Positions 6,186 to 60,361 of a stretch of 64,000 bases of DNA are shown here, one piece after another (within the stretch, counting starts at the first letter, position 1; each line of letters opens with the position of its first letter). A program made the translations under genes and the position numbers. The notes under the pieces were generated by a model. The model was given only the letters and a program-made list of their open reading frames with translations, was not told where the DNA came from and ran no database searches. Source of the DNA: Phoronis australis (taxonomy: Eukaryota; Animalia; Phoronida); contig NMRA01000386.1 of the NCBI GenBank assembly GCA_002633005.1, forward strand, positions 1 to 64,000. The letters are read 5' to 3'.

Positions 6186-6365
6186 TCAAAGGGCAACGCT
6201 GCAGGGAATCCTTTCCGGAAGCAGATAAAGGTATTCAAACTCTTTTTTCTCGTTCCTCGCGTGGATGGTCTTCGATATCCGGGCAAGATTTTGTCGAAAT
6301 TTCTCCTGAGCAAGTTTTGCTTCCTCTTCAGCGAACAACTCTTCTGGGAAACTCCCCAGTAATAC
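6186..6365 (-). CDS. Lipoxygenase last coding exon
   Basis: tgcAG acceptor; VLLGSFPEELFAEEEAK...YLYLLPERIPCSVAL followed by TGA. Confidence 0.92.
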   Translation of the reverse strand, partial: VLLGSFPEELFAEEEAKLAQEKFRQNLARISKTIHARNEKKEFEYLYLLPERIPCSVAL

Positions 6366-30200: not shown

Positions 30201-32282
30201 AGGTAGGTTAAATTGGTAAGAAACCAAAAACTTTCATTTTTGCTGCCATGACCCATTATACGGTATGCCAGCCGGGCTGCGTTTCGTAGAAGCCAGTGTG
30301 GTTACATGCTACGCTTGCTATACATGGAAATTTCTGACAAAAATCTTCGTGATGTTGTGTTTTCGCGACATTCTTGCCTCTATGGAACGCAGACCAGTTC
30401 ACCCTGGCCTACATTTGCTCTGTAATCCAACACTAGGGCATTATCAGGACAGGTTGTCTCCACATACAATCGTGATAAGTACAGTATTTTCAGACGCGAA
30501 AAAAACATGACATCTTTCATTATTGGACATCAAAAGCAATGTTAAACGGCCGTTTCCGCTTTTGATAACCTTTTCTGTTTCTCTTCTTCGTTAACAGTCC
30601 CTTTTCCGACCTACTTCGAACGGACTCATAAAATCTCAATTTCCACGACGATGGAAGTTCATAATGAGCCGACACGTAGGCTACATGGACAAGACGGTGT
30701 CGCCACTTAGCGACTGTCTAAGTGCGTGAAAACTTCGCGAAAACGAAAGATGTTGCCAGGCTTCCTTCGCTGCAGCTGTCTGATCGTTGCACACTCTGAG
30801 AACATCATTGGCCTCATCTTTTCAAATTGGTAACACGGCACCTCGAAAGTTGTTGTGGCCGGGGAAAGAAAGCGTTGTGACGATTCTGAGGGCACCCTAA
30901 CTTCTTATAGCTTAGGAGTACCGAGGAAACTTAAACTGCCACTGGGTATAAATCAAGCCTTAGTTTCTTTGACGAAGGCGGTATATAGTAGATGGTGCCA
31001 AGTGCTCCACATATTGTGAAAGTGTCAATGAACAACATTTGGTACTTTCCCATAATGCTATGCTGTCACTTTCGTCACCTTTACATTTCGAAAACCAATT
31101 TACCAACACGAGGTACTAGAATTTACAAGTTAAAACTCCGTTTCACGGACGCGTGACCCAGGCATGAAAGTTTAGACTGTCAGTGACAGTGGTATCCTTG
31201 GGGTTTTTCTTCTGCACACCACACATGGGCAACACTAAGTGAGCTTTTGCCGTGGGGCCATTTGCAAATTGGTTTTGGACCTCCTTCACCGTAGAGTCTT
31301 GTGTCAGTTAACCAGTATGAAAATTACGTAGCCTAACGTTCATCCGGCTTGTGCCCGTCCGGAGTCCATTCCTTAGTGCAAGTTTCTTCGTGAAAAGTGA
31401 GACCATAAAAGTTTTTCCGAGTAGTGTATTAGTACTGGATCACCCTAGAAACTTTTGATCACACGCTTCTGGAATGTGAGCATGTCACCATACAAACATG
31501 GCTTTCAAATGTAGTAGAAACTAACCTTTTATTAGCTGAGAAAATGTAATGTTCTATAGCTGTTCCCGCCCTGGTTGTAACAGAAATATGCAAGCGAGCA
31601 CATCGATATTTATATAGATGTACGCACTCCGGCGGATACATGTAATTGTATAAACATACAGATGAACCTATTGACGGGGCGCAACTACATTTGTACAAGT
31701 TTACTCAATCCGATGTAATCTATCCACAACATCTCCCTATACAACGTAATGTTTGTGCAGGAAAATTCAAATTTTAAAATAGGTGTGCCCTTTTCCACAA
31801 ATCAAGTTATTCAACAGATGATTAAATGTAGCTTAAATAAGGAGCTGTTAGTAATTAGTCAAACAATGATACTTATTTTACATCTCCGTCCTTCCCATTT
31901 ATGGATCGGCCCTTCCCATCAGGACGTTTGATATGCGCATCGAAAGTCCAAGCTTCAAATTGGATGATAAGGTGTGAATGGGAATACAAACCAAAAATGA
32001 CAGGGACGAAGATGTATATGCAGCTTCCTAAGCCAACCAAATTCGTTTTCGGAAGGTTCGAGCATATTTCGTTGTCTTGACGAAACGGGCTGAGGATGGG
32101 TGATAATTCATTGATGCTTTAAGGATTCGTTTATTAGATTAACGTGACATACAGGCTCACAGTGATATCACCTGTGTCGCAAAATATTCGGACAATTAAG
32201 GACGACATAGACCTTAAGAAAATTAGCATGAATCGTTTCGTATGACGTAGCATCTTCCACATTTGATTGGTAAGGCGATTCA

Positions 32283-32369
32283 CTAGCAAGCAGACGCAGC
32301 ATACATCTGTATCAAGTCGAAAGAAATGTCAGATCCGCCACTATATCCCATCCTGGCTTCGAATACCAC
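32283..32369 (-). CDS. MAM terminal exon, cassette B (duplicate)
   Basis: tttcattgcAG acceptor, then VVFEARMGYSGGSDISFDLIQMYAASAC and TAG; 87 nt, as in cassette A. Confidence 0.82.
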   Translation of the reverse strand: MVFEARMGYSGGSDISFDLIQMYAASAC

Positions 32370-34794
32370 CTGCAATGAAAAGTTTACGTAGCAGAACGTG
32401 ACAGTAGCACAGCCTACAAAGCCACATTCCATCAGATTACTTTTGACTTAGATTGCTTACCCTTATAACACTGACTTTAAGGTTTTTTGTTAGATTAGAT
32501 CCGCTTTCGTTTGTCTGGAAGAACCGACATTTCTGTTCTGCATGGGAACAGACCAAATACCCTAAGTTTGCAAGTCTTTGCGGGCTATGCCTTGTGCCGG
32601 ATATGGTCCTTAACAAACAACAAACCAGAAATGAGGAAAAATTAATAAAATTTATTTCTATGTCTTTTGGCTAACATCATCATCGCTGATTTTGAGTTTT
32701 CCTGCCACGTAGCGTGGAAAATAACGCAGCCATTGTATATTGCACAAACACAGGGATTACCCTCATCTCTAATAAAAAATAAGCTGAAAGAGCACCTTCA
32801 ACTTTTCAACACGCAGAGTAACCACGTTTTTGGCCCGAGTAAAAACAGCTGGATGCAAAGTAGTGCGATAACGGACACAACAGGGAGGAAATTTACTCAG
32901 CATTTGATGTTAATTCCAGTCACTTCAGCATGCATAGAACAGCATGTGGACGACGTAACAGTTTTGTCGTTTGATGTGACTTCTACAGGCACCATTGGTA
33001 TTAGGCTTTTTCATGAAACTGCATCAGCCTTTGCCAAACCATAGAGTCCTCTCCGTGTATGTTATATCCAGACAATTTTCAAAACCAAAAGTTGTTACCA
33101 TGGCAGCTTTTACGGAATACACATTACCATGAACAATACCGTCAGCAAATGCAAGGTGACAACACTTCGCTTACTTCAGAAAAATCAATTTCACAAACAG
33201 TTTTATTTAATTTTTGTTTACTGTTAAAACACAAGAACATCGAAATTGAACACAACAAGCAATTTACAGGTACAAATTAAAACTCCAATGATCTGGTAAA
33301 TGTTGATCAATATTCAATTTTTGACCGCTTGCATGTCTCAATGAACATGGAATAACACAACTATGTGCTTCATATTACTTAGATTTTCCCGGAGCTCACC
33401 CAAATTGTTTAAAAATGTTACTGTTGATTGTAAATGGCATTCTGCTTCTATGTGAAAAAGGGCTGTCGGAAGCCAGGGTGGAAAATTGTAGATACGGCTA
33501 GGAGACTACAAGTTGGCGAAGCTGAATTCGTCTGCTCTTTTGGTAACATTTTTGGGCTTGATTGTGATATGGGGTCAGTATATCAGGAAAAAAATGAGTG
33601 CCGCTGTTGACGTACCTATTTCCATTATTTGCCTCATAATTCTTAACCAATATATAAAGATCAAGATGATCCAGGTATTTGATATTGAAGGTAGCTTCAT
33701 ATTCTACCATTAGGTGGTGATGTGGTTTCAAATAAAGCTTGTTTTACTGCTATTTTGACCTACTTGTTTAATGTGAGTTTAAATGCAGAGACAATAATAT
33801 TTATCAACAATGACACATTGAACACGAACTCTAAATTTCAACGATTTACCATTTTCACCAATTTTATTGACAAATTATAAGGAAATGTGAAGGAATTAGA
33901 GCAAAAATGTCCACATAAAGTTACCAGTTTACAATAAGCACGAACTTTCTGCATACCAGGGTTCATTGACTAGGAAGGTTGGGCCTTGTTGCGAGCAAAC
34001 GCACACTCTTGGACATACACTGAACAATAAACATTTATGCTCAGGTGTATCAATAACCTACTGTAGCGGTCACATAACCGAAAAACTTATCGCACATTTT
34101 CCTCACTACAACTGCTTGTTAATAAATATTCACGTACAAGCTCGGGAACAAGTATATTTTGTATCTATTTCTTGCGAAACTGGGTCAGATTTTTGGATCC
34201 CACCATACGGTCAGTCGTCCTAATGGGAGGATCTTACTGTTGAAAATTTACTATACTTCTAATTTTGATGTGCATTTCCAATGAAACAAGGAAACATTTT
34301 ATTATTTTATCATGTGTGTTTTCCCAAATTTACGTCTATATTATCTGCAGAAAAAATCTTCACATAAGACCATCGGGCGTATCTGAATGTAGACCTGTCT
34401 GCACAAAAGCCAACACCTTAAGCTTTGGAGGGAGCATCAGGCAAACATACGTATTCTTGCAGTAACTGCGGTGGTGACAAACCTTCAGAGACTACGTGTG
34501 ATAACTACTGTTAGCGGGCTATTGAAATCTACAACTTTTCTACGAGGGTACGTTTGTTCCTCCGGGAATTGGAACCTTTGTTATGGTTCCAGAAAAGCAT
34601 TGCGCATGGCTACAGGTATTTTCACAATCAGCAATAATGCCATTTGATGAATTTTCTAAGGCCCTTGATTTTTAGAATGACGTTTTTTAAGGGGATACTG
34701 ACCCATGTTTAGACGAAGCTGTTATTCACATAGTGGCAGTTGTGTCGTCTGCTGCTATATAATTTGTCCGTCCACTGATAAAGGAAATATTTAC

Positions 34795-36610
34795 TACAAG
34801 AGCAACGGGGATTGTTGAAACGTGCCCACGAATACATCGCAAACGGTGTGCTTTTAGGGTTTTTTATTTGTCAGTGTCATAAAAATGGCCACTAGATGGC
34901 GCAAAAACGCACAATCCATCTGAAAATGGGTACATGTCATAGCTTCTTTAATAGAAAGCTATTCACCAAATTTTAAAGAAATCTGTCACAGAACTTCAGA
35001 GAAACAAAGGAAACAGAATAAAATGAAATTGCCACTAGGGAGCACAGTGTTCATTGGAACCGCCTGAAAGTCGTCATTGTCTGTTTTTAACTTCATATAA
35101 ATAAACTTACTAAATTTAATTAAGTTCCAGCAGTGGGTTTAGAAGATACAGCTATGGGCGCAAAACTACCATTTGAGACGCCACTGTAGTCAAAGTCGTC
35201 ATCGTCAACCAGCCTCTTCATCCTGATAACATATACGCAAATTTTCAAACCATCCTTAGAATGATTTGGTTGATAGAGGGGTTGACGCCAAAAAAAAAAC
35301 AGACTCGAAAACAGGAAAAATGACCATTAGGTGGCGCAAAGTATCCAAATTCCATCCGAAAACGGGAGGGTAGCGTCATCTCACCAATAGATGCCTGTAT
35401 TCAAAATTTTATGAAAATCCGTTGAGGAACTTTGAACATACAGAGGTAAACGTAAAATGCACAATTGCCACCAGGGGGTGCACCAGAAGTCAGATCCGTC
35501 AGAAAGTCGTTCTTTGTCAACATCATGTACATAACACTTGTTAAATTTAGTAGATCCTGCAAACGATTTAAGAGATACAGCCATAGGCGCAAAAAAAACG
35601 AAACTGCCGGTAGGGGACACCACAGTAGTTGAAGTCTTTAGGAAAATCATCGTCAGCCGTCCACTTCATAATAGAAACATACATGCTAATTTTCAAAATT
35701 ATCCTGAAAGTGGTTTGGTTGATAGAGGGGTGGACACCAAAAACAGACTCTAAAACGGTAAAAATGGCCACTATGTGGCGCAAACGAGGTCGAATATATA
35801 TGAAAACGGTATGATAACGCGTCACCGCACTAACAGAAACCTGTACGCCAAACTTAATGAAATTTGTTGAGGAACTTTGTATATACAGAGGCTAACGTCA
35901 AAAAAATAAAATTGCCACCAGGGGGCACACCAGTAATCAAATCCGTCCGAAAGACGTCGTCGTCCTTTGTCAACATCATTTAAATGCACTTACTAAATTT
36001 AGTAAAGATTTTGCAAACGGTTTAGGAGATACAGCCAAAAAAGCAAAACTGCCACTAGGAGGCACCACAGTACTCGAAGTTGTCGGAAAATCATCAACAC
36101 TCCTCTTTATAGTAAGAACGTACATGTCAATTTTCACAATCATACTTTGAGCGGTTTGGTTGACAGAAGAGTGGACGCTAGAAACAGACTAGAAAACTGT
36201 AAAAAATGACCACCAGGTGGCGCAAACTACGTCGAATCCATCTGAAAACGAGAGGATACCGTTGTCTCACCAATAAGTGCCTATATGCCAAATTTTATGA
36301 CAATATGCTGAGGACCTTTGAAGATACAGAGGTAAACGTAAAAAAACTAAAATTGTCACTAGGGGGCATATGAGTAGTCGGATCCATCCGAAAGTTCGCT
36401 CACGCCGTCCCATTTATGAAAGAAACACATCTGCAAATTTTCATGAACACACGTCAAATGGTTTTGGAGGCAAAGCAGCAGACGCTGGACGCCGGACGAA
36501 AGCCACCCTCCCAGACGGACGGACGGACGGACGGACAGACGGACGGACAGACGGACGAACGGAGATGACGGCATAATGGGTCCACATATAAATTTGTGAG
36601 CGCATAAAAA
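34795..36610 (+). mobile_element. Non-autonomous Helentron/DINE-1-like element with internal tandem array
   Basis: Absent from the paralogous intron (contiguous at about 47525). Starts with ACAAGAG, has about 3.7 units of about 440 bp (each three about 145-bp subunits), a (GACG)n microsatellite at about 36514-36560, and a 3' imperfect hairpin ending gcataaaaa. Family assignment is inferred from architecture. Confidence 0.7.
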
Positions 36611-36724
36611 TGCACTCACAACACTGTGTCACAAGATCATCATTGGGCGGACTGTGAACTCTTTATGAATCATCAAACTCCTATGACTGAGCACGCGCTT
36701 CGCGGCATATTTATTCAGCCCTAC

Positions 36725-36900
36725 CTGAAAGATGTCATTTCGGTTCACATGGACACTAGCCTGGTACCATTGGTCTTTTTGGTATCCGGATTTGTGCCAG
36801 ATATTCCCCTTGTTTCCGTTGGTGTCCACTACGAGAACATTCAACGTCCCCACGCTGAAGCCGTCCATGTGGTACCACCACTTCAGGCAGAATGGCTTTG
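36725..36900 (-). CDS. MAM penultimate exon, cassette B (duplicate)
   Basis: (P)KPFCLKWWYHMDGFSVGTLNVLVVDTNGNKGNIWHKSGYQKDQWYQASVHVNRNDIFQ; ttgcAG acceptor and GTAGGG donor; 176 nt, same length and phase as cassette A. Confidence 0.85.
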
Positions 36901-38415
36901 CTGCAACAGTGATACTTGTAGTGATTATACACAAACGCAGGAGTGGAAGGGCCCGGAGGTAAGTACCCCACAATAATTTGAAGGCGTCAGGGAGTATGGC
37001 TGGGAACAGGAAGCAGTCGAGAAAAAAACGAAACACGCATTTGCCAACTACCGGTGCAGACAAAGATGACAGCAATATACGTATATCGGCGCATAAAAAT
37101 GACGAAACGAAAATGAAACAATGAAATGAGGTTTGATTTTATAAACCTCAGAACACTCAGCTGAGCCTAAAGACCGATGAAATCTCGGGGTCGCAAGCTC
37201 TCTAAATTTGCGGCGTTCGCATTTCAGTTCCTCTACTCATATTCTTTGACTTTCAAAAAACGTTTACTTGATTGATTTCTGACTATCAGCATACGCCTAT
37301 GATTTTAGACCGGCGGGCAATTTGGCGCTTTATGATTTCGTAAGTTTTCGTCCTAATTAAACAGAACGAGTTCCTCGATGAAGGCATTTGGTCAATGTGA
37401 CATATTTTACTCACTCTAAGGAGTGTTTACGTAAACGAAATGAACAATTTATTAAACCGAAAGTTTGATGATGTGAAAAAGTAGAACAGTACAAGCGCTT
37501 TATGTCTGAGTAGTGTGCTACAGCTGAAAGACTGAAAAGTTGTCATATAAATCCTATTGGCTGTTTCCAGCATCATTGCAAATTGTTTCTCGTGTACCAA
37601 ACGGTGATTGAAGACCGCACCACAAATCGACCATTGAGCAAATAGAGAAGCAGCTCAGCTCCCACGGGCTGGGATTCTTGGACTTTGTAGTCACGGTAAT
37701 ATAAACAAAGACAACCACTTTCCAATTATTCTGATTAAAATTAACATCTACTTACATATGTACAAACATGTTGTCAAGTGACACGAAATTTGGGACTAAG
37801 ACAGGGTCGAGCGTCAGCTCCGACAGTCCAACACTTGAAACTTGCGGCATCTTCAGTCTTCATCACCAAGCCGTCCTCACGCGTTCTACAGGCTCCACCA
37901 AATAATACAGTGAAGTTCTACTGTACTGTATGTACTAGACGTTTCTGTCCACACCGTTGCAAAGGCTCGCCACATAAACAAATAACACTAAATACTTCGA
38001 GAGTATTTGAACAAAATATAAGAAAGTCCAGCCTCAGTGTTCAGATAATTCATCACAAACCCCTGCTCACCATCGCCGACAAACTAGAACTTTCGGATAA
38101 ATTCAAAACTGCCCCCTAGAGGGGAGTACCTAACACTTGCTCACTGCACTGTATTTCCGATATTGTGACCTGAAGTATGAAGATAAAATCTATAACCACA
38201 CGGCAATGGGGTAGTTGAATAAAAATTTCATGTTTTAATACAGTGTACAGCTTACTTCGACTTTAGATTAGATTTATTTAATGGATTAAATATCAATTTT
38301 ACACCTTAAAATGGTAATATTTGTGATTTTAGTGGTTTCTAACGTGTCGGGAAAGACACTGATTCTGCTTTTTATCATGTGTAAGTACTTTTGAAAAGAG
38401 ACATAAATAAAGTTT

Positions 38416-38630
38416 CTCCCTCCTTCCCTCCCTCCCTCCCTCCCTCCCTCCCTTCATCCGTCTGTCCGTCCGTCCGTCCCTCCGTCCGTCAGTCTGTCCG
38501 TCCGTCCGTCCGTCCGTCCGTCTTTCCTTCCTTCCGACCATCCTACCCACCTTCCCTACCTCCCACCCTCCCACTCCCCCCATCTCTCTCCCTGTCTCTC
38601 CCTCTCTCTCTTTCCCTCTGTGTCTTTCTC
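38416..38630. repeat. Compound (CCCT)n(GTCC)n(CT)n microsatellite / polypyrimidine tract
   Basis: Seen directly in the sequence. Confidence 0.9.
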
Positions 38631-38754
38631 AGGTTTTGAATTGATATTTTCATTCATTCCATTTGTAATGGAAATTGATTGAGCTTTAAAATGATCTAGA
38701 GAGTTAACTAGGTAGGCATTCAATTAGATAGATGTCCACCTTTAAGATTTTTTT

Positions 38755-41700
38755 AATAATGTTTATTGCGAAATCTTCGATACAATGAATATACATAACC
38801 CAGAAAGCGCCAAGAGGCATTATATCTAGGTTAATAAAGTACAAAGAAATCTATATATAATTATTTTAAACAAATACATGAAAAAGAAATCTGTATACAA
38901 TTATTTTACACAAATACATAAATTAAAAAAAAACTGTTGTTAAGATTACAATGACATATGATTTCCGAAATTAAATAAATCATTTTCATTCACATTTATA
39001 CAATTCTATCCACTCACACAAAGAGATTTAATATTATAAAGAAATTTTGATACTATTTCGAATAAAACCTTATTTTCATTTTGGTTGAGTTCTTGACTTT
39101 CATATAGAAAAAAATAATTTTGTTGTACACTTGCGGAATTTCAAAATATCTTTATAAATATTGGGGTATTGTTCGAGTGTCTGGAAAAGCTGTACCCTCT
39201 GCTCCTTGCATACCTCACAAGCAAAGAAAACATAAGCATTTGTCTGTGCGTCTCCACAGCAACACCGATGCGAAATATTATTAAAATTATGTCTAAATTT
39301 CTCGTTGTTTAGGAATAGACCGCATCTTGATCTGTAATGGATTATTTCGTGGTTGCGAGAAAGTTGAAACGATGTCAACTCTTGAGTAGTAGTATGCATT
39401 TTAAAGTTATTTCTTAGAATGACGATTGAAGTGCTTTCTTTTGTTTTGGATGGAAAGGAATTCCAGTTGTCCATACAAGTTAATACGGTAGATTTCCTGA
39501 AGGCTTGGCTGAGAGAAGATTTAATAGTGTGCATATTACTTTGGCGCAGTCCTGGTCTCGTGTTAGGTCTTTTGTAGGAGTCAAAGAGGAGTAATTGTTT
39601 GTGTTGGTTAAGACTTTGAATGTAAACATGGACAGTTGGAGTTTACGACGGGTTGCTTGTTTACTCTAGTTGAGACTGTTTAGAACCTTGATTGTGTTGG
39701 ATCCTTTGTATGCCCCTGTTATGGCTAAAGCTGCTTGGTATTGTAGTCTTTCTAATTGGAGAAGTATGCCAGCGTTTGCCGATTGGTAGATTATGTCACA
39801 GTAATCTAGATGTGGAAGTACAAAAGACTTGAACAGAGTTTCAATGTGAATGGAGTTGAGATGACGAGAGACAATTCTAATTGAATTGATTAATTTTTGT
39901 ACTCTGTGAACGAGTTCGCGACACTGAGGAGTAAAAGTAAGCTTATGGCCTGGTAGCAATCCAAGGTGTTTGTGTGTGAACTTATTGGGAATAACTTCCC
40001 CATTGCGTGATAATTCCAGCATTGGATTTGCTTGGAAATGAGTATTATTAGACTTAGAAAATATAAGATCAACACTTTTTTCTGGTTTAAATTTCATCTT
40101 CAATTTGAAAGACCAGTCATAGAGTTTGTTTAGGTCAGTTTGCAATTGTAAGGAGTCATGGGGATGCGCTTTTGAGAACGGGTGGAAAATTGCAGTGTCA
40201 TCAGCATATAAGTATGGTTTAGAGCTTATCGTGTCTGGATGATCATTGATGTACAGTAAACAGAGTAAGGGTCCTAGTACGCAACCCTGTGGTACTCCAG
40301 CATTTACAAAGCCTGGCGTTGATGAAGGTGATAAGACACCCTCAATTCGGACACTGTAAGTTCAATTTTCCAGATACGATTTTAAAAGTAAGAGGAGAGT
40401 GCCTGAGAAACCGTAAGATTGTAATTTATGTAGAAGTAGGTCTTCGGGAGCGACATCAGAAGCTGACGCAATGTCTAAAAATACGGATCTCACGTTGTAC
40501 CCTTGCTGGAGGTGAATGTCATGTACAATTTCTGTAAGTTGGGAAACAGTGCTGTTACCAGGCATGCATCCAAATTGGCAACGATATATGAGGTTTTGTG
40601 AAGAGAGGTGATCAAACATGTGGTGAGAAATGATTTTTTCCAAAATTTGGAATAAGGTAGTAAGTAGAGTTATGGGGCAATAGTTGGCAATGTCTGTTTT
40701 GGAGTACTTTTTGTGTATTAGTATCATAACGCCTAGCTTCCAGTTCGAAGGAAGTTTTCCAGATTGTAGTATTTTGTTGTATAATGTTGTCATAGGAAGT
40801 GTAAGCTCTCTTGCCATTATCTTGATCATGTTATTGGTTATGAGATTGGTACCGTCGTTTTTGTTTTTGTCAATGTTTTCTAATAGTTTTGTGACTTCAG
40901 ATGGTTGGGCTTCTATGTAAAAGAGGTGTTCTAATGTTCTGTTTGGGGATTCAGGAAAGTTTATTGTTGGTGCAATGTGACTCTTGGCGGTGAAGCAGTC
41001 TAGAAATAACTTACTTTTATCAGCTTTGGATGACGTCTGTGAGTTGGAATCCTTTGAGTGGATGGTTGAGTGTGATGATTGTTTTACCTATCCTCGAATT
41101 TTGTTTACTATATCCCAATATTCCTTAGAATTTTTGGAGACATTTTTGATATTGGAGATAACCTTTATCTTATAGTATTGTTTTGTCTTTTTAATTAGTT
41201 CTTCCACACTCTTGCACTGTTCTTTGTAGCACTTGAACGTGCATGGGTTATTTGATCTTCTGAACGATCTGTACAGTTTATTTCTCTTATTTATTTCATA
41301 CTTAATGTTATTGTTAAACCACGGTTTGTTCTTGTTTTTTATTGTTTTCATGGTTGATGGGATATTATTATCTAATATTTTGTAGAGTGATTGTGTGAAT
41401 AGTGAGACTGCATCATTTATGTCGCTTTTGTTAATTATTTCAGTCCAGTTGAATGTGGTTATGTCAGAGCGCAGTTTGTCCATGTTAGTGAGGTTGTAAT
41501 TCCAGATCTTCTTCATAATGTCCGGTTCTTTAGATGTGCAGTTGAGTGTGAATGTTGTTTCTATAACGTGGTGGTCTGAGTTACCAATGGGAGGCCTTAC
41601 AAAAGTGGATTCAATTAATCCGAGATTGTTTGTAATACATAAATCAATGCAAGAATCTGAATACTCTGTTAAGCGTGTCGGCTCGTTTATTAGTTGTATA

Positions 41701-42600
41701 CAGTCATTTGTGAGGAGAATATTGAATAACCGGCTTGGTTGTCATTGTCTTCTGAGTACCAAGTACTGTTTCTTGCGTTGAAATCCCCGTTGATAACAAT
41801 TGTTTCATTAGTTTGTGAGAGTTCTGGCAATTGTTCTGAAAAGGTTTTGAAATATGTTTTCCTTTCGTGGGACGTCTGTGAGGGTGAGCGATTGAAAAAA
41901 CCGTAATATATCTTTTTGTGGTTGACATAAAGTTTAATTCAACAGTTATTCATTGATTGTATAATTTTATCATCAATTGTTTTGTAATTTACGGAGTTGG
42001 TGACAAACAAGATCAACCCCCTCCCGGCGTTAATGTGGTGGACAATGTTGTATTCTGGAATAATAAGTGCGCTGATGTTGTCTTCGGACAGTGTTCCGGA
42101 TTCACATATGGCAATGACCATGTAATTGTTGTCTGTAATAAATTGCTTGAGAAGATCAAATCTTGAAAGATTGTTCGCCTTGATACTGTTGATAGTAGTG
42201 AATAAGACCTTGAAGCTGGCCAAACCCTGAGTCCCTGGTCCTGGATTGACCTCTATGTCACCAGCAGTCAAAAGGCTTTGCTCAATGATAACTCCGATAT
42301 CACAACGTGAGTTCCTCATTGTGTTGTAAACATTACGTTAGTACGCAGTTCGGGTTCTATTTCGTAGGCGAAAAGCAGTACGTGGGGTATTTTTGTTTTC
42401 CAGACACCCGGACAATTATAATTATTATGTCTGTAATTAAATACTGATAAATTCATACAGTTCATACTTAACATGCTTATCTTACAAGAGAAAAAGAAGT
42501 ATATACAAGTGGGTGAATAGGCTAAAAGTAATGAAGTAAGGACAAAAGCTATGAACACTAGGGTAGGCATGAAAATTCCCACCATCACTAATTCAATTAC
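38755..42600 (-). mobile_element. CR1/L2-group non-LTR retrotransposon, near full ORF2, frameshifted
   Basis: APE endonuclease remnants (TINSIK, VIAICES, PTR..E.S.SCIDL, SDHH); RT motifs NYCPITLL, GVPQGCVLGPLL, YADDTAIF; C-terminal HLDYCDIIY; AT-rich 3' UTR with a stem-loop near 38797-38835. Confidence 0.93.
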
Positions 42601-45129
42601 ATTGAGTTAGGCTAAATCTTGCATATAGAAAACTGATGGAATAGTGAAATGGATTGGCTTACTACGGATGTGATATTAATTCAATTAGATGAGATTCAAC
42701 GGGGTAGACAATTTCTACATATTTAGAACATTAATACTGTACTTTAGGATGAAAATATATTGCCAATTACATTGTCTTATTACGCATGACGGTGCCCGAG
42801 TCAAATAGAGCTCTGAGTCAATCTACTCGTTTGGTCGCTTTTAGCTTGAACGTCAATGGTGATTAAAATTGGAACAACCTAAAAAGCAAAGGTAACTCAT
42901 GAATTGACTCACACTTGATGGAAGTCTTGATCTGTAGATGAAAATGAGTCACTGAGGTAACATACATGTACATGTACATGTATCTGAATGACACAACTAC
43001 AGTTGTCAAGTTCAGTGTAGTTTCATAATCATGACACATATGAGACGTGAAATTCTTTAAAAAATATGCATTACTAAGATAAAAGATGTTCTGATTTCAC
43101 TCCTCGTTGTTTCATTGTTATTAGGAAGTCATGCGTGTAGGCTGTAGCTAATTTACCCAGAATTGCATTTGAAGTACTTTATCACTTGCAAAATCAAAAT
43201 TCAAGGGAGTTGTACTTTTTGCTGCACCGAGTTTACCCGTGGGCCGAAAGCTGTAATGCCAATATCAAAATCAAAATTTATCGGCAAGAGCTCACTCGTT
43301 TTGACTTTGTTTGAGCACATAATTATGTTATTGGGTCACAGGTTTTTTCACAGAACGACTTGTAAGCATACGTCGGCACGTTGTCACTTCTACTAGGCTC
43401 TAAATTTATATTAACAGAGTATGCAGTGGCCTTTTGGTAACCACAATTTATGGCACTCTGACATAAATCCTATTTTTGGGCAAATAACATTCTACAGCCC
43501 TTCATCCTTCGTATCCAACTCCTAGTTAGTTCCTACCATATCCGATGGTAGCGCTGTTTGTTCTTTTTCTCCAGCTTCCTGTTGGCCCAGCCTCAAGCAA
43601 CAGTACATTTACCCGTAAGTTTTCCCAATTAGACAATTTGACACCTCTCCGCACAAACTGAGCCACAACTCTACGTTCCTTACAATATTTTTTATCACTC
43701 CGGCTGGTCTGCTCACTCAGCTTGTCCGGAACCTGCTTTGCAGGTTGTTATAGCCCAGTTGGCTGTTTGATGTACCCACTTGGTATTTATTATATGATAT
43801 TTGCCCATTTGGCAGTTGTACCCATTTGGTACTTGTCATTGAATTTGCCTTTTTGCTCGACTCACTTGGTAGGCAATCAGTCAATACCCAGTTGGTATTA
43901 TGTACCCATTTGGTACTATGCTAACCTGTGTCACTAAGTTTCCGATACTCAATTACACATTGGGTATCGTAAATGTGTGTGTTATCTCTTGTAATTAAGG
44001 AACCCATCTGGTTCCTTCTGTGAAATATTCATTTGTAGAGCTGTGACCCTGAAATTCCCAATACAACCTAAAATATATATTATTGTTGTTGTTTTATTTG
44101 TCCCCAATAACGAAAAGTGTGCGCGAACTTGCTGGTTTCTCTTGAAAATATATCGCTTTCAGCCGTACAGGCCACTTGGGTATCTGCCACTGGTTGCAAT
44201 CCTCTATTAGTTTGATGTTTTCCATATCGACTGATTAATTGTAAAAAAAATCATGTAAGTGCTACATTACATGTTTCATGTTTTTGAAAATAGTCACATT
44301 TTTTCGCTTCTTTATATATTAGTCATCGCATTTAGAAAAGTGCAATTTGCTCCGTTTGTTTACACGGCGAGCACCGTGTCACGTGACTAGAAACACTTTC
44401 CAATATGGCGTCAAGTTGTCATCTGGAGTAGCGCGTGTGCGCCGAATCTATGCGATGTCTATCATAACAATAGTTATATAGGTGAACCCACTGTGGTGGA
44501 TAGATTTAAATGTATAATTATACGGGAGCAGATACTGTAGCGGCTGCAACTATACTTGTACAAGTTAACACTCTCCGATGCACCCTCTCTGGAACAACTT
44601 CCTCTGCAAATTTATATTTGTCACCGGACATCGACAGTAAATTGTTGTGCACATTTTCACGTATCAAACTGTTTAACGGATGATAAAAGTGCAATTTAAG
44701 TAAGAAGGTGTTAGTAATTAATCAAACAATGATACTTTTTTACAACCCTTTGCTTCCCATTTCTGGTTCGGCCCTTCCCTGATCAAAAGTTTCAAAGTAT
44801 TCGCAGCAGATATCCAAGCTTCAAACTGGATGATAAGGTCAATTGCAGCTGACATGTATATGACACCCAACTACAAAGTGACAGGGGCGAAGATATATGT
44901 GTTGCTTCCCACAGAGAACCAAAATCGAGTGAACATTCGAACCTATTTTGCCATCTTGACAAAACGGGCTGAGGACGGGTGGTCTAAGGATCTGTTTACT
45001 TGATTCAAGTGATACACAAGCTCTCAATGACATCAACATATTATTCGTGAAATTGGACAATTGTATTTAGTAGTATGAATCGTTTATTCTGACATGACAT
45101 CTTCTACATTCGATTGGTAAGGTCATTCA

Positions 45130-45216
45130 CTAGCAAGCAGACCCAGCCTTCATCCGTATCAAGTCGAGAGCAGTGTCAAATCCATACGGTAGCTTCATGC
45201 TGGCCTGGAACACCAC
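45130..45216 (-). CDS. MAM terminal exon, cassette A
   Basis: tttcattgcAG acceptor, then [28 protein letters not shown] and TAG. Confidence 0.82.
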   Translation of the reverse strand: MVFQASMKLPYGFDTALDLIRMKAGSAC

Positions 45217-48200
45217 CTGCAATGAAATGCTTACATAGTAACACAGCCTATAAAGCCGACTTCCACCAAAACAATTATCGTTGTCATTTTCACTGTTGCT
45301 GTATTCCGCGATAAAAGACAGACGCACATTTCCAAGTTACGGTCGTCTGCCGGGACTATTTGCACGCTAACAACGGAACCGACCAGTGCCGCGATACCAT
45401 GGATTTTGTCGTAGATATTTGATAGTAAGGACAATATTTTTTTCCACCACAAAGTTTGTTAAGTTGATCGTCTAAGAATTAGTAGAAACATCGCTGTTTT
45501 GTGACGTTCTATGATTAGTTATGCAGTGGTCCGAAACTTTCTTCCGCACAGCCGGAAATTTGTAAAAGTAGCCGAAAATATTAGCCAATGAAACTCGTAA
45601 AAGATCGATTCTGCATTATCCCATGTTCGTGCGACATGCTTACAAACTGGGGAGGGTCTGTTCTGGGATAGCGTTCTTTTGAACTTGATTTGGCAACAAC
45701 CAACTAACGGTTGGATTCACACGAGTTGCGACATATTTTCCAGGTTTCTTCCGAGAAGTGTAAAAACTCAGCTCGTAAACGCTGGAAATTCTGGGTACTA
45801 TTTTGCAACTTGATACGAGCTGGCAAAAAACTCAGCTTGCATTTCCAAATTTCAGGTGGCAAATGCGACCTGCAGCTCGTTATATCGAGCCCTGATCATG
45901 GTATTTGTCAAACGGAGGAAAGCGGTTCACACACTTAACGCCTTATTTCTCGGATTTTTTAATGAAATTCTATCAAATGTTTCAGCTCGAATTTATTGAT
46001 ATGTCCCTATGTGCTTTCCATTGTTTTTTTAACATGGGTAATTTCTTGGTACAGTCGACTCCCGGCAAAAGGAGTTCCTGGAATCAGGTAATAAGTTTCT
46101 TTATTGTTGAAGTGTTCTTGCGATGTTTTGTTGGCGCGCACAGGTCACAAGCCAATTGCGTATCTGGCATTATAGTATACAAACGACCCTTGGTAACCAC
46201 AACAGAAAAAGGTATTTGGCTTATATTTATCATGTCTTCCGGGAGCAAACGACATTAACAAAAATTTCCACGGAGAATCCAATTCTGGAAGCCAGTTTGA
46301 TAGAAAAACACCTGTTTTTGTCCACGATAGTTTAGTTCATTCCAACCAGTGTTTTATTGCCATGGACATTTCGTTAATGCAATGTAATTGTCCTGCCCCA
46401 CGCAAAAGGAGCAAGACCCAAGATTCTGATGCTGGCGGGTTTTGTTTGCCACCTTATGGAGCCCACCGAAGGTGGGGGGGGGGGGCTAAACAGGTGCAAA
46501 GAGGTGCTCACTACGCCACTGGATTGCCTACTGTCATTTCATCTCCATTACACACTACGATCATCTACCGTCGATAAAACATGCAATACATGTTTATGGC
46601 AAATACTAGGAAAGCACTGCTAGGTCATTTAACTCCAACAGGGACACTTGATCTTGTGGTTTTTGAATCGAAGATGCCGGGAGGCACCAATTCGGCCTGT
46701 CTAAATTGAGCCAATTAGTATCCACCGTGAAATGTTGAAGTCAATATCTCGTTCAGATTTTTTTCTCGGAGGTCTTGGGTGCTCAGGGTAGAGACACTTT
46801 TTGCTCGAGTCAAAACCGGGATCGAATTATCTTTGGTGCATATAAGATATGATTTGACACCAGTATGAAGGGTCCTGGTCAGTCACAGATTTACCTATCC
46901 TGGCTATTACGAGCTCATCCTCTGCCACTGCCCTTGATTTATGAGGTACATTGCAGCATCTCAAATGTTCTTATCATAACTGACCAAAGCCACAAAGCTT
47001 TTGTTATCGAACTTGTTTGATGAAAACTTTCAAAACGAACACTTTATTTTGCCTTTAAGAATTTAATAGTCTCTTACACATTCAAACTCCAAGGATTTAT
47101 TTCCATTAAATTTACCTGCAATTGTCAAATAAATGATGATGGAAGAAAACAAAAGGGTTACCTAAGCAAATTTTATATATACTCAAACTTAATGTCAACT
47201 GACTCACTGGCAAAGGTCATCGGGTTTTCTTTTGATACTGATCACGTAATATATCCAGAAAACAACTTGTTTTCAATTGAAAACCTGACTTGCCTTTTAA
47301 AACAATTTGAAGCAGATTTCTCATTCAAAATTTCGCTCACTTTGTCTGCAAACTATGCTCATTATCTCAGCTTAGCTGCGGTATTTGCACAGCGACAACG
47401 CCAATGGCCGAGTCATAGTGCCATTGTTTTTAGAATGACGTGGTCCATGTTTACGCTGCCGAGTCAGTGACAGTAGTGTCGTCTTCTACTGTATAATTTG
47501 TCCTTCCCGTGATAGAGGCATTATTTCATAATGCACTTTCCCTCACTGTTTCACAGGTTGTCCGGGTGGATTGCAAACGCATTACTACTCATACAGTGTA
47601 TGGCCGTTCTCGAACATTTGAACCAATATTTATTCAGCCCTACCTGAATGATGTCCTTTCGCTTCACTCGGACTCTGGCCTGGTGCCATTGGTGTTGCTG
47701 CCTTCCGTAATTGTCCCAGACGATCCGCTTCCTTCCTTTGTTGTCCACTACGAGAACCTCCAAAATTCCGAAAGTGGAGCCATGCATATAGTACCACCAA
47801 CTCAGGCAGAACCGCTGTGCTGTAACAGTTTTGATCGTAGTGATTATTACACACAAATGTAGGAGTCGAGGGACAGGAGGCAACTGCCCCCCAATAATTT
47901 TTAGGCGTCAGAGAGCGTGGCTGGGGTCAGGGAGCAGTCAAGGAAAAACAGCAAACATGTATTCAACTTCTGGTGCTGGAATTGTTGTGCAGATTCTAAA
48001 AAGCAATTTTTAATGTTTATTACGAAATATTCAATAAAATGAATGTACATAACCCAGAAAGCCCCAAGAGGCATTATATCTGGGTTAAACATATACAAAG
48101 AAATCTATATAAAATTATTTTACACAAATACATAAATTAAAAAAAAGATGTTAAAATTATAATGACATATGATTACTAATGTAAATAAATCAAATCCATA

Positions 48201-51200
48201 CACATACATACTGTTCTATCCACTCACACAAAGGGATTTGATATTATAAAGACATTTTGATACTATTTCGAATAAAACCTTATTTTCATTTGGGTTGAGT
48301 TCTTGACATTCAGATAGAAAAAAAATTGTTGTACACTTGTGAAATTTCTGTATATTTTTGTAAACATTGGGGTATTGTGTACGGAAAAGCTGTACCCTCA
48401 ACTCTAGCATTTGTCTGGGTGTCTTCACAGCAGCACAGAGGCTAAATATTATTAAAATTATGTCTAAATTTCTCGTTGTTTAGGCCGCATCTTATATGTA
48501 TAGGATTATTTCATGGTTGCGAGGAAGTTGGAACGATGTCAATGGTATTAGAAACTCTTGAGTAGTGGTATTTTTGAGAGTGACGATTGAAGTGCATTCT
48601 TTTATTATGGATGGTCAGGAATTCCAGTTGTCAATACAAGTTAATATCGTAGATCTCCTGAAGGCTTGGCTGAGGGAAGATGGAATAGTGTGCATATTAC
48701 TTTGCCGTAGTGCTGGTCTCGTGTTTGCTCTTTTGTATGAGTCAAAGAGGATTTGTTTGAGTAATTGTTTATGTTGGTTAAGACTTTGAATGTATACATG
48801 AACAGGTGGAGTTTACGACAGGTTGCTAGTTTGCTCCAGTTGAGACTATTTAGAACCTTGATTGTGTTGGACCCTTTGTATGCTCCTGTTATGGCTAAAG
48901 CTGCTTGGTATTGTAGTTTGCCGAGTGGTATATTATGTCACAGTAATCTAGATGTGGAAGTACTGTACAAAAGACTTGGACAGAGTTTCAAGATGCATGG
49001 AGTAGAGATAACGAGAGACAATTCTAATTGGATTGATTAATTTTTGTACTTTATGAACGAGTTCGCGACAGTGAGGAGTAAATGTAAGCTTATGGTGAAG
49101 TAGCAAGCCAAGATGTTTGTGTGTGAACTTATTGGGGATAACTTCCCCACTGAGTGATAATTCCAGTGTTGGATTTGTTTGGAAATGAGAGTATTATTAA
49201 ACTAAGGAAATATGAGATCAACACTTTTTTCATGTTTAAATTTCATCTTTCATTTGCAAGACCAGTCATAGAGTTTGTTTAGGTCAGTTTGCAATTGTAA
49301 AGAGTCATGGGGATGCTCTTTTGAGAATGGGTAGAAAATTGCAGTGTCATCCCCATATAAGAATGTTTTAGAGTTTATTGTGTCTGGAAGATCATTGATG
49401 TACAATAAAAAGAGTAAGGAGCCTAGTACACTACCCTGTGGTACTCCAGCATTTAGGAAGCCTGGCGTTGATGAAGGTGATAAGACACCCTCAATTCGGA
49501 CATTGTAAGTTCACTTTTCCAGATATGATTTTAAAAGTAAGAGGAGAGTGCCTGACTAACCGTAAGATTGTAATTTATGTCGAAGCAGATCATGGGGAAC
49601 GACATCAAAAGCTGACGCAATGTCTAAGAATATGAATCTCACGTTGTACCCTTGCTCAAACTGGAGGTGGATTTCGTGTACAATTTCAGTAAGTTGGGAC
49701 ACAGTCATGTTACCAGGCATGGATCCAAATTGGCGACAAAATATGAGGTTTTGTGAAGAGAGGTGGTCAAAAACGAGTTGAGAAATTATTTTTTTTTTAA
49801 ATTTTGGATAGGGTGTTAAATAAAATTATGGGACGATAGTTGGCAATGTCTGTTTTGGAGTTCTTTTTGTGAATTGGTATCGTAATACCCAGTTTCCAGC
49901 TCAAAGGAATTTTTCCAGATTGTAGTATTCTGTTATAAATGTTGTCAAAGGAACTGTAAGCTCTCGTGCTATTATCTTGATCATTCTAGTTTTTATGAGC
50001 AAATTCTACCACGTTTTTAAATTCAGAACTTCACGGCAGTTCCCCAGGGACTCCATTTGTCACATTTTCCGGTGTTTTTGAGCAGGCTCCCAATCTTGGA
50101 CTAAATTGTCTAAATGTTAATAATTTTATGGAATTGGATAACTTTTTATGTTAAAGATGGCCTCCTCCTGAAATACTTTAAGGAGTGGTAGTGGGCAACC
50201 CTGGTTACCATAGCAACCCAAAAGACGACACTTTGCTCCTAAAGACCAAAAAGCTCCAAGAGCTGGAGCCCATCATGAATTATCAGAGGACAGGCTATTC
50301 CTACCAACGTTCAAGAAGGAGTTGGACCCAAAGTACAACTGACCTGTGTGTTGTCTAATTTTGATGAGAATCACTGATACCATTACCAACAAAATGACAA
50401 AATTGAAATAAACAATGAAACAAGGTTTGATATAATAACACTTAATTAAAACTCAACAAGGCGGACAATGCGCTAAAATCTCGGACTCGCGAACTCTTAA
50501 ACTTTTGAAGTTCTCATTTCAGTTATTCCATTCCTATTTTTTGTTGTACTTCCGTTGACGTTACACCAAGCGATTACTTGACATGTTTTGTTTTATATTT
50601 TTTCTCACAAAGATTATCAGCATACTCCTAAAAGGAAGATTTAAGACCGGCGGGCAATTTTGCGCTTGTATAACTTCACAATTTCCTGTGCTGTTTTGTT
50701 CCAGTCGGCATATTTTATTTGCTCTAAGGTACTTTCGTGTAAACGAAATTAACTTTAGATATTGAGGGACACACGGCAACCGCTAGCCCAGACTCCGAGC
50801 GCTCGGACACCCGTACAAATTGACGACAACATGCGATCACGTGAAAAGTGCAAGCGCATGAAAATCAACTTTTGATTGAGACCACTTACTTTTATGACGT
50901 TGGTCTGTTATTAGAGACTATTGCAGGGCTTCGAAAGAACTAGCAGTTGGTTGCAACTATGCTTTAAATGTTGGCTTGTCAATCAACATTTGATACGTCG
51001 AGCAGAGTGTCAAACCTGCATGTAATATGTCATTTGTGCGAGGAACAAGTTGATACTCACTTCGCAAACATACCTATGACTAACTTAAAACTTCGTTTCT
51101 TGGACACAGCGATGATTTGCAGACGTTTAAACTACAGAGGCTACTTAGCACTGTTGACGCAGATGGAAGATCAAGACATTCTAATATTCATTTAACTCTG

Positions 51201-54200
51201 ATATTCGTTGCAAAAACGTGAAGTGACGTATTTATTGGTACAGATTTTTGTTCCCTTAACACCTACGGAAGGCAATGGGAGACGACATCACCAGTCTTGC
51301 CTCTTTGTAATGGTAACCGCTAAGTCCGTTTGCCTCTGCAAGGAGGTAAACGCTTCCACTTTTCGCAGGGACGGGAAAAGAATGTGAACTTGCTGTACGT
51401 GTCTACAAAAGAAAGTGTCTAGAAATGAGATTTGTTGCTTAAGTCAACAAAATGAAGAATTTAACAATTTTATACTAAAAAGAAGACTAATTAGACTGGT
51501 GAATAATTACAACAATGACCCTCATATTGGCACCTAAAAATTGAATTTGCTATTCTTGTTTTTCAGAGAAATGTGCATATTCTTGTTGTTGATTCCACAC
51601 GGATTGCATCCCAAAACTCTAATTATCTGTCGTTATTAACCCTCCAAGGCAGGCCTTGTTGTCACGAGGCTCCAGCATGATATCATGAATACGCAATAAT
51701 TTATAGAAACAGCATAGCAGCTTTGGCGTTTCGATTTTGTTAGAATCAATGGTGTTCGTTCCGTTTGAATCCAGCATGCCTATTCACCACTTGTTATTTG
51801 GTAAAATGAATTCACCCCAATTACGTTGCTTTGTCGTGAAGCTTGTTTTCGTCGTTTTTACTTGGGGAAATGCCATTTCTGAAGGTATATTGGTGTGTTG
51901 TGAAGTGAAACATTGGAAGTCGCCCTCATTGTTGTTGTCAACGTCGTTGGCGAGTTTTTTGTCGAAAAATTTCAGTTGCCGTGTATCAAGGGCGATGTCG
52001 TGGTGTTCGATGAAGTCCTTAGTATCACAGGTTGTGTTCAAGCAGGAAAGACATCATCTTCAGCAACCGTGATCGTCCTTGTTACTATTGCCTTCATGAT
52101 ATATGTTATCTTATGCAACCAGTTTCGCTAGGAGGTGTTGCTCCTTATTTAAGCAGTATCCATCATTAATGCAGTCATGTTCATGATCAACACCGTCAGC
52201 ACTTGTTGACCCAGTGTCCAGGCATCATCTTTTTGACGATATCATCAATGCTTTTTCAGTGCAGTCGTCATCAGCGATGTCTTGGTCATTGTCGATAATG
52301 CGACAAATGATTTTTTTACTCCAAGCCCGTTGCTTTATCATCAAGTTTTTCTTATACGCACGCTACAGATTTTTGCATGTCTTTTTTAATCAGGGAGAAA
52401 TTCTCACACCAAATTTTCAGAATATGGACTGACACCAAGGTACCTAAAGTACAAGGTTCACGGACTCATAAACACGGTCACGGACTGATGAACACGATTC
52501 ACAGACCTGCAAACACCGTCCACTGACTTAAGAGCACGGGAACAGACCCACAAAACACGATCCATTCACCCAATTATCAGGGGACATGGACTCATATTCA
52601 CGAGGAAACACGGTTAACGGACCGCCAAACACGGGTCACGGACTCATCGGCTTCCTGGGTCAGCTGATATCTACATTTTGTCCGTAAACCGTGGTTGGCG
52701 GTCCATTAACCGCGTTTCTTCGTGGATGTAAGTCCGTGTCCGTGTATTTTGGTAAATGGATCATATTTCGTGAGTTCGTTTCCGTGTTTGTTAGTCAGTG
52801 GACGGTGTTTGCAGGTCCGTGGGTGGTGTTAATGTGTTCGTGACCGTGTTTAGGACGCGGTTAATCCTGCAGTTTAGGTGCCTTGGACACTGTTTTAATT
52901 GTATTGTTTTGTTTCGTTGTTCTGTTTAATTGGCATGACCCCTGAGAAGTACAGTGGTGATGTAATTTGCTTATTACAATATAGTGTGGAACTTTCTAGA
53001 AGACTCTAGTAATTAATGCAGTCTAGCATATTTCAGAGACTAGTTCATGTTTGTAGAATGATTGGGTAGATTCTGGAAAGTTCTGGCATGTGCTTGAATT
53101 GATGAAAAGTTCTAGAACGAAAAGCACGTAAGCAGTTAAAGAGTTGCAGTGAAGAGAACCAGCAGTTACAAAGAGAGTCAATAGAGAAAGAGTTGCAGTG
53201 AAGAGAACCAGCAGTTACAAAGAGAGTCAATAGAAAACGGCAGGTTTTTTGAATCAGCGAGTGTAGCAGTTGTTGAAGTGTCCCAGAAATTCATCACAAA
53301 TCAAGGCTTCGCAACACTGGCTGCAGCATAAACAGACACCACGTCCCACGTTTTGCTTGAGTGGGCTTGTGAATGTACGACCGAGATTAATAAAAGATAA
53401 ACTCGAACCAGTCTTCAGTCTATCGTCGCACCGAAAGCTATGAGCACCAGTCTGTAACAACCTACGCCCACCCGCACACGGGGAAAACGTGACAAATATG
53501 CGTTTTGTAAATCGTTCAACGCCATTGAATTCCACATGAAGAATTTGGCATACCAAACCAGTGCAAGTGTAAACTTGTCGCTCCGTTGGCCAATGTTATT
53601 TAAGTGGGAGGATACATGACTCTTTGGCTACTCCGTGGCGTGTCTGTTTGCCGTGTCACAAATGCGTTGTTGCCAGTCGACCAAATCTCAGCTGCTCAAT
53701 TGTCAAAGGTTGATGTGGATGGAAACACTGCACCCACCACAACGTGCAAAATTGACGCAAACTCACGCAATATGGAAGGCATTCTATACACGACAGAAAT
53801 ATTCTGACAACACTCAGAGTGTTCACAGGCAAAATGGCAGCCCCTGAAGTGAAAAAATGAGTCGGATGCTGAATCGAAAAAATAAAAACCGTATATTTCC
53901 ATTCATCTTCAAGGATTTTACGATGTATGAGCTGGCGTGTTACTAGCAATAAATTGGTTAAAAACTTACATCCATTAGTTTCCAGTTGAAATCCGCATTT
54001 GGATCGTTATTGAATATGCACCATGTGACATCTTCGAAATCACATGTCAAAGGCAGCTTGGGGCAAGGCAGCGGTCTCATCACAAAACTGTCCAGTGCTA
54101 TGTCGCCTTCGGCCGATATACCTTTAGTTCCAGTGATGACAAGCTACAAAACATCAATGATCGTAACTGAACGTTCTAAAATAAACTAACTGATCCTTGA

Positions 54201-60200: not shown

Positions 60201-60361
60201 CAATGGAAAACTGTCCAATATGGAACATCATACGTACCCGGAAAGTGGCTGGTGGAAATTGTGGCTTTGGCGAAGTTTGAAACTGAGGACACTTCCGTGT
60301 AGATGTAACGCGTATTCTGGTCTCCGGCGTCAGGACCTGTGCCTCCGGTTGGAGTGCTACC
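45130..60361 (-). CDS. Multi-MAM-domain protein, 3' part (5' end outside window or not located), with proximal terminal cassette A
   Basis: Exons 60361-60238, 57150-56972, 54143-53970, 51402-51267, 47819-47644 and 45216-45130 are all phase-compatible. MAM motifs: [41 protein letters not shown]...[28 protein letters not shown]. Confidence 0.88.
47644..47819 (-). CDS. MAM penultimate exon, cassette A
   Basis: (P)[58 protein letters not shown]; ttacAG acceptor and GTAGGG donor; 176 nt. Confidence 0.88.
48010..50000 (-). mobile_element. 5'-truncated copy of the same LINE family
   Basis: Colinear with about 38755-40845, including the 3' UTR stem taacccaga...tctgggtta; GVPQGSVLG retained, and the catalytic motif reads YGDD; several deletions. 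Confidence 0.92.
51267..51402 (-). CDS. MAM-domain exon (single copy, upstream of both terminal cassettes)
   Basis: [45 protein letters not shown]; ttttgtAG acceptor and GTAGGT donor; phase 0/1. Confidence 0.8.
52431..52890. mobile_element. Foldback-like palindromic element
   Basis: Imperfect inverted arms of about 210 bp (ccaaggtacctaaa... / ...tttaggtgccttgg) built of aaacacggt.acggac subrepeats. Confidence 0.8.
52972..53494 (+). mobile_element. Probable solo LTR, same family as 13742-14312
   Basis: Colinear 3' half, ends GTGACA; internal direct duplication of about 49 bp (aaagagttgcagtgaagagaaccagcagttacaaagagagtcaataga) at about 53138-53235. Confidence 0.6.
53970..54143 (-). CDS. Exon spanning end of one MAM domain and start of the next
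   Basis: [58 protein letters not shown]; ttttgtAG acceptor and GTAAGT donor. Confidence 0.9.
56972..57150 (-). CDS. MAM-domain exon
   Basis: (A)[59 protein letters not shown]; phase 1/0. Confidence 0.88.
58090..60050 (+). mobile_element. Degenerate relative of the 34795-36610 element, interrupted by MITEs
   Basis: Shared subunit words (atggccactaggtggcgc 58441, gtgccaccagctggcgcaaaa about 59572, gaagatacag) and a similar 3' tail cagacgccggac at about 59990. Confidence 0.55.
59060..59305. repeat. Repeat-rich MITE-like segment
   Basis: Multiple taaacctggt / taaaccag words and a duplicated aaaccacctttatgaaat. Confidence 0.5.
60238..60361 (-). CDS. MAM-domain exon
   Basis: [41 protein letters not shown]; tttccAG acceptor and GTACGT donor; phase 0/1. 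Confidence 0.88.

Follow-up and report, generated by a model that had tools for sequence, protein, structure and literature searches.

Introduction

According to the parts of the sources drawn on here, Drosophila PGRP-LC carries tandem-duplicated 3′ terminal exon cassettes (x, y, and a; PMC6191721), and C-terminal swaps are enriched among human tandem duplicated exon substitution events (77 of 236; PMC9741552). Paralogous Dscam exons have a ratio of replacement to silent substitution rates (omega, or dN/dS) of 0.26 (PMC3236188). Zonadhesin is built from MAM, then mucin, and then VWD domains (PMC9275260), and MAM-LDLr proteins are present in the coral skeletal matrix (PMC4890752). Here we describe a gene of the phoronid Phoronis australis that encodes MAM domains and appears to end in either of two homologous exon cassettes, A and B. 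It lies on contig NMRA01000386.1, positions 1-64,000; this whole 64,000-nucleotide (nt) stretch is referred to as the window, and all coordinates refer to it.

The duplication is real and the gene layout is of a known kind; diversifying selection is not demonstrated. We favor, with a confidence that is about evenly balanced, the reading that the last two exons and the 3′ end were duplicated in tandem and serve as two alternative terminal cassettes, whose divergence is approximately neutral or somewhat above.

Results

Two homologous terminal cassettes

The cassettes had been noticed in an initial annotation of the window, whose exon coordinates, identical lengths, intact splice sites, and absence of internal stops were all reproduced. 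In both cassettes exon 1 measures 176 nt and exon 2 measures 87 nt, an AG acceptor precedes every exon, and exon 1 is followed by a GT donor:

47644..47819, minus strand: cassette A exon 1 (A1), 176 nt, MAM profile positions 73-130
45130..45216, minus strand: cassette A exon 2 (A2), 87 nt including TAG, ends Cys-TAG, local MAM profile E=0.42
36725..36900, minus strand: cassette B exon 1 (B1), 176 nt
32283..32369, minus strand: cassette B exon 2 (B2), 87 nt including TAG, ends Cys-TAG, local MAM profile E=0.0063

With AATAAA at 45088 (A) and 32135 (B), each cassette has its own stop codon and a predicted polyadenylation signal. The MAM identity is supported: A1 and B1 score 39.8 and 41.9 bits against Pfam MAM (PF00629; gathering cut-off, 26.4) and match the solved MAM domains of MDGA1, neuropilin-1, and enteropeptidase; A2 and B2 taken alone gave no match in the Pfam scan. 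Once spliced, the last MAM domain extends over the full 158 positions of a profile that was derived from external MAM domains. The second Asp of the MAM DD motif is replaced by Leu in both A and B. Positions identical between A and B show higher profile conservation (Mann-Whitney p=0.003), in agreement with the annotation's statement that the MAM core residues are kept.

Word-indexed protein searches gave no match for A1 or for B1. A profile search of 1.84 billion representatives yielded 1771 matches at E<=0.001, the best 150 of which were examined; among the matches listed (15 top alignments per spliced model), the closest proteins are 28-33% identical, invertebrate, and multi-MAM, and include a scallop protein with astacin, CUB, and three MAM domains (P0082) and a hemichordate MALRD1-like protein (P0007). 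An ESM Atlas search returned MAM clusters only. Two metagenome loci (208 pattern matches) had 17-residue matches with a best MAM profile E of 0.16 and were rejected as chance. No orthologue was found by the word-indexed, profile (best 150 of 1771), and metagenome searches, and repeats dominated the allele tables.

Shared upstream exons and limits of the duplication

The initial annotation described the cassettes and missed the shared upstream exons from which they hang, four in number, which code for most of the penultimate MAM domain and for the N-terminal half of the last one:

60238..60361, minus strand: 124 nt, starting in phase 0 and ending in phase 1, encodes the N-terminal portion of the penultimate MAM domain, AG/GT, local profile E=4.5e-5
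56972..57150, minus strand: 179 nt, starting in phase 1 and ending in phase 0, encodes the core of the penultimate MAM domain, Pfam MAM 31.8 bits, E=1.5e-7
53970..54143, minus strand: 174 nt, starting and ending in phase 0, encodes the end of the penultimate MAM domain, a short linker, and the start of the last MAM domain
51267..51402, minus strand: 136 nt, starting in phase 0 and ending in phase 1, the last shared exon, encodes the N-terminal half of the last MAM domain, local profile E=0.027

The first of these alone is without a Pfam match, the second corresponds to the same part of the domain as A1 and B1, and the third has a local MAM profile E of 3.4e-8 with a Pfam E of 0.0065, under the cut-off. 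The donor of exon 51402-51267 is in frame with either A1 or B1, and the four upstream exons followed by A or by B give a 291-residue open frame with a single terminal stop and all phases fitting. The joins A1-A2, B1-B2, and A1-B2 are in frame, and A1-B1 is out of frame. A MAM profile search over the six frames of the window recovered eight segments at E<0.5, and neither an N-half exon for B, homologous to 51402-51267, nor a third cassette was found by it. The shared exons join either cassette in frame, and B lacks upstream exons that belong to it alone; the two cassettes are therefore likely alternative 3′ ends of one gene.

Homology between A and B begins within the intron below 51267 and stops about 660 nt past the stop codons:

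50391..50753, minus strand: intron sequence at the 5′ boundary of the A copy of the duplicated unit, matching B 37096-37445
37096..37445, minus strand: intron sequence at the 5′ boundary of the B copy of the duplicated unit, matching A 50391-50753
44470..45129, minus strand: 3′ flank of cassette A, homologous to that of B (158 differences in 637 columns)
31606..32282, minus strand: 3′ flank of cassette B, homologous to that of A

Two minus-strand copies of one family of long interspersed nuclear elements (LINE; 38757-42337 and 48011-49999), with endonuclease and reverse transcriptase interrupted by stops, are about 11% diverged; they sit at different positions relative to B and A, and thus likely represent independent insertions after the duplication. 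The B intron also contains an array of repeats of about 441 base pairs (bp) at 34880-36395, related to pieces at 58.1-59.7 kb that draw more than 1000 RNA reads per run and belong to a highly transcribed repeat family.

In the proposed mechanism, the gene would have coded for at least two MAM domains when its last two exons and 3′ end were copied by a tandem duplication. Exon 51402-51267 would be spliced to A1 and then A2, with a stop and polyadenylation near 45088, or would skip about 14 kb to B1 and then B2, with a stop and polyadenylation near 32135, so that the choice would exchange the C-terminal half of the last MAM domain. The predicted products are two or three forms of a putative extracellular multi-MAM protein ending in a Cys and devoid of a membrane anchor. 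Over the swapped half they would be basic (A, net charge +8) or neutral (B, net charge 0), and would thus display different binding surfaces. The frame and fold-core residues would have been kept in both copies, while the variable, predicted surface positions would have diverged at an approximately neutral rate or somewhat faster.

Transcription of the upstream exons

Three raw RNA runs bearing the same species label (X5, X6, and X7) were compared as depth per bin on the two strands. The bins containing the first three upstream exons gave 1.79/0 in X6, 0.03/0 in X5, and 0/0 in X7 (60238..60361); 3.31/0, 0.91/0, and 0.32/0 (56972..57150); and 2.93/0, 0.98/0, and 0/0 (53970..54143), respectively. 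The bin of the last shared exon (51267..51402) was weaker and less stranded in X6 (0.81/0.43), and gave 0.04/0.21 in X5 and 0/0.54 in X7. Depth in X6 over the upstream exons corresponds to about 4-12 reads. The signal over these exons is one-directional and lies in unique DNA, with the neighboring intron bins at 54155-54811 and 57440-58096 empty, and it fits minus-strand transcription, given the usual library convention. At the DNA level, contigs of run X1, which may be the window's own sample, span A1 and A2 with two other letters each.

Replacement and silent change over the cassette exons

A and B differ at 28 of 58 residues in exon 1 and 13 of 28 in exon 2 (together 41 of 86), and only 4 of the 45 codons for conserved residues carry a silent change, exactly as counted in the initial annotation; at the nucleotide level, 68 of 263 positions differ. 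The strong excess of replacements over silent changes that had been read from these counts is not borne out. The Nei-Gojobori estimates are pN 0.257, pS 0.290, and dN/dS 0.86 (Fisher p=0.72), and pairwise codon likelihood under four codon-frequency models gave omega of 0.88-1.04, with p of 0.73-0.99 for omega=1 and profile intervals ranging from 0.5-1.6 to 0.6-2; exon 1 alone gave 0.82-0.95. After correction for multiple hits, region-wide dN/dS is therefore not above 1, an outcome that the initial annotation had itself named as one that would refute its proposal.

The count of silent changes is a biased statistic, because seven of the 45 conserved codons encode Trp or Met and have no possible silent change and 14 are two-fold degenerate. 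As a neutral yardstick we used three alignable non-coding flanks, in which 277 of 1125 columns differ (p=0.246, distance d about 0.30); alignment bias is small in simulation, a true d of 0.30 yielding p of 0.243. At d=0.30, 7.8 silent changes are expected in the conserved codons, and the probability of four or fewer is 0.08 (0.33 at d=0.2 and 0.016 at d=0.4). The p-distance of exon 1 (0.25) is the same as that of the pooled flanks, and the 41 residue differences observed are close to the number obtained by neutral simulation at d=0.30 (40.7±4.6). Taken over the whole region, replacements are therefore not in excess. The yardstick excludes two more intron stretches (p 0.39 and 0.33), whose windows had run past clear homology; adding both would raise the neutral distance and lower omega.

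One cluster of differences stands apart:

A 45184..45195 and B 32348-32337, minus strand: 12-nt block, codons 66-69, 12 of 12 nt mismatched

A mismatch run of 12 was reached in 0 of 5000 shuffles, the next-longest run being 3. When the block is shifted by one base, 5 of the 12 nt match, and a free aligner opens two compensating gaps; the block is therefore better read as a single event, likely one complex change or compensated frameshift. The initial annotation had reported no indels between the exons, which holds for their net lengths but not cleanly for codons 66-69, where a compensated +1/-1 or complex event is the better reading. An M2a versus M1a site-class signal (p=0.03-0.04, omega at the bound of 60) was rejected as the product of this block, since leaving the block out raises p to 0.93. 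Most of what looked like selection comes from counting silent changes in conserved codons alone, together with one clustered mutation. No sign of a gene conversion tract between A and B was found (longest identical run, 16 nt; P=0.37).

Constraint on the core and change at variable positions

Codons were split in three ways into core and variable classes, "core" and "surface" being proxies from the MAM profile rather than burial in a structure, and 24 partition fits were made, anchored on the flanks or based on codons only, with the 12-nt block kept or dropped. Core omega is 0.28-0.63, and 11 of the 12 flank-anchored fits place it significantly under 1 (p<0.05). Moreover, at the gap density of the flanks (32 in 1125 columns) the 263 nt of the exons would be expected to hold 7.5 gaps, and their complete absence has a probability of 6e-4 (0.024 if one copy alone were free); the probability of no stop is 0.04 with both copies free and 0.20 with one free. 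The cassette exons do not evolve as dead DNA.

The strongest competitor to the favored reading accepts the same alternative endings but holds that the exposed side of the last MAM domain has been under positive selection to recognize a changing partner, which averages with purifying selection on the core to an omega near 1; we regard this as possible but rather unlikely. Core omega lies below 1 while the mean is 1, so the remaining positions exceed 1, and the variable-position point estimates are indeed 1.30-1.95 in all 24 fits. They exceed 1 at p<0.05 in six fits (p=0.003-0.013), all flank-anchored with the block kept, but in none of the 12 codon-only fits (p 0.15-0.49) and none of the 12 block-dropped fits (anchored, p 0.05-0.16), and the site-class signal is lost with the block as well. 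With the block dropped, the variable omega is 1.30 at a neutral distance of 0.30 and 1.10 at 0.35, with confidence intervals (0.95-1.85 and 0.80-1.55) that include 1; furthermore, flanks that can be aligned are a selected and perhaps constrained sample, and the neutral distance may in truth be higher. In favor of selection, A and B differ at only 3 of 20 four-fold sites, and there is a precedent known by study title only, a positively evolving region in zonadhesin MAM2 (cited in PMC9275260). Among 1085 external MAM half-domains, whose mean net charge is -3.1, 0.3% attain the +8 of the swapped half of A, a rarity in line with selection; however, neutral drift starting from B attains it with P=0.066. 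A more specific version, in which a constant N-half would be combined, as a switchable half-domain, with one of two C-halves, a neutral one and an unusually basic one, whose exposed faces positive selection would have driven apart and which would engage different partners, we consider slightly more doubtful still. The diversifying selection on a recognition surface proposed in the initial annotation finds no counterpart in the region-wide omega near 1, and retains the variable-position omega of 1.3-1.9, significant only in some fits. With two sequences, relaxed constraint and mild positive selection on the surface cannot be separated.

A third account, to which we give a low probability, treats one of the cassettes as redundant or decaying and rarely or never used, omega being an average of a constrained and a free copy; A is the likelier candidate, or B should it never be spliced. 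Core omega is about 0.4, near the 0.5 expected with one free copy, and the core changes and losses of consensus fall mostly in A: at differing sites, B matches the top profile residue 11 times and A 4 times (p=0.12), and the profile scores of A and B are 55.0 versus 64.8 and 7.8 versus 13.7 bits. The 12-nt block comes closer to B when A is shifted by one base, and cassette A looks the more derived of the two. Neither cassette has shown expression in the RNA data, which reach the A bins (swamped by repeats) but not B. Nevertheless, an open, unshifted frame in one free copy has a probability of about 0.005 (0.20 x 0.024), splice sites and AATAAA are intact in both cassettes, and A is the cassette nearest to the shared donor. 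The overall omega expected from such decay, about 0.65, lies under the confidence interval of 0.70-1.30 (d=0.30, block dropped), although inside it at d>=0.35.

That B is a separate gene or an assembly artefact (an uncollapsed haplotype) is very improbable: the read data do not extend over B, which would permit it, but A and B are 25% diverged, compared with 0.1-0.7% other letters in the DNA run contigs, their introns carry different repeat insertions, no N-half or first exon was found between 36900 and 44470, and half a MAM sandwich would be unlikely to fold alone.

Other features of the window

A lipoxygenase gene (PLAT and LOX) with at least seven exon matches lies at 6189-19094 on the minus strand; its largest exon is 46-51% identical to coral allene oxide synthase-lipoxygenase-like proteins, and exon 5 gave distant matches in the word-indexed protein search. 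An inverted partial copy of its region 11569-12907 occurs on the plus strand at 28148-29958 with 68-77% identity, and the exon copy within it is frameshifted, a dead fragment of an age similar to that of the MAM duplication. Within a lipoxygenase intron, on the opposite strand, 8638-9067 holds a 33-bp tandem repeat of about eight copies, the open frames of which read as an 11-residue repeat containing Trp-Asp-Ile. The lipoxygenase exon at 16.3-16.6 kb is flanked by a 157-bp direct repeat (15883-16039 and 16979-17135; 73%). Imperfect palindromic elements at 4580-5549 and 52435-52886, 69-75% self-complementary, are probably similar to miniature inverted-repeat transposable elements.

Discussion

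Several points weigh against the favored reading of two alternative terminal cassettes diverging at about the neutral rate or somewhat faster. No splice junction into A1 or B1 was seen, none of the 15 joints listed (of 141) being from this gene; the RNA bins with A1 and A2 are swamped by repeats, and the read data stop short of B. Competing RNA pairing of the PGRP-LC or Dscam type was sought between 51266-50760 and the 170 nt upstream of each acceptor, and no docking/selector pairing beyond real-sequence controls was found: the candidate was better than 40 of 40 shuffles, but among 62 real tiles, 7 and 11 did as well as or better than its best docking duplexes (-31.0 and -29.1 kcal/mol, respectively), and it was rejected. 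The product is presumed to be extracellular from its MAM family membership, since the N-terminus and any signal peptide fall outside the window. With all codons, the variable omega at a neutral distance of 0.30 is 1.6 (1.15-2.20), a value that pure relaxation does not predict. Finally, as far as the cited portion goes, the omega of paralogous Dscam exons is far below the omega near 1 obtained here (PMC3236188).

In the favored reading, the fast change most likely stems from a loosening of constraint once the exons had been duplicated, chiefly in A, with positive selection possibly contributing. Should both cassettes be used, a single gene would give rise to MAM proteins with two terminal binding surfaces, a natural pair for mapping binding by the MAM face. 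The layout is a common one, and the locus matters mostly as a candidate for selection tests with alleles and orthologues.

Among MAM proteins, zonadhesin is set apart by its domain order, as both cassettes place their stop codon after the final MAM Cys, where zonadhesin continues with mucin and VWD domains; the likeness lies in the presence of MAM domains in a fast-evolving protein, to the extent of the zonadhesin source cited above. MALRD1 and meprin have LDLa between MAM domains or MATH/EGF after MAM, plus a C-terminal membrane anchor. That architecture was also rejected, the gene described here having a short linker between its two MAM domains and no further domain or hydrophobic segment before the stop. 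The invertebrate proteins named [quoted passage not shown] resemble it more closely in having tandem MAM domains, several with a final Cys and no anchor, but differ in that no LDLa module separates the last two MAM domains here. A duplicated or alternatively spliced variable MAM terminus was found in no report that the literature searches reached, supplements aside.

The comparisons with duplicated-exon systems that follow extend as far as the cited parts of those reports. As in Dscam, the duplicated exons encode half of a recognition domain, and there too positive selection between paralogues is undemonstrated; Dscam, however, has dozens of internal exons, in contrast to the two terminal cassettes here. 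The human tandem-exon events share the conserved core and surface-biased differences (surface here being the profile proxy), but are mostly ancient and conservative, whereas the present pair is about 25% diverged at the DNA level with omega near 1. As in PGRP-LC, homologous terminal cassettes stand in tandem behind shared upstream exons, each carries a separate stop and 3′ end, and the choice between them would alter an extracellular binding module; the Phoronis gene departs from it in having two cassettes, in exchanging the C-terminal half of a single domain, and in that its isoform use is predicted.

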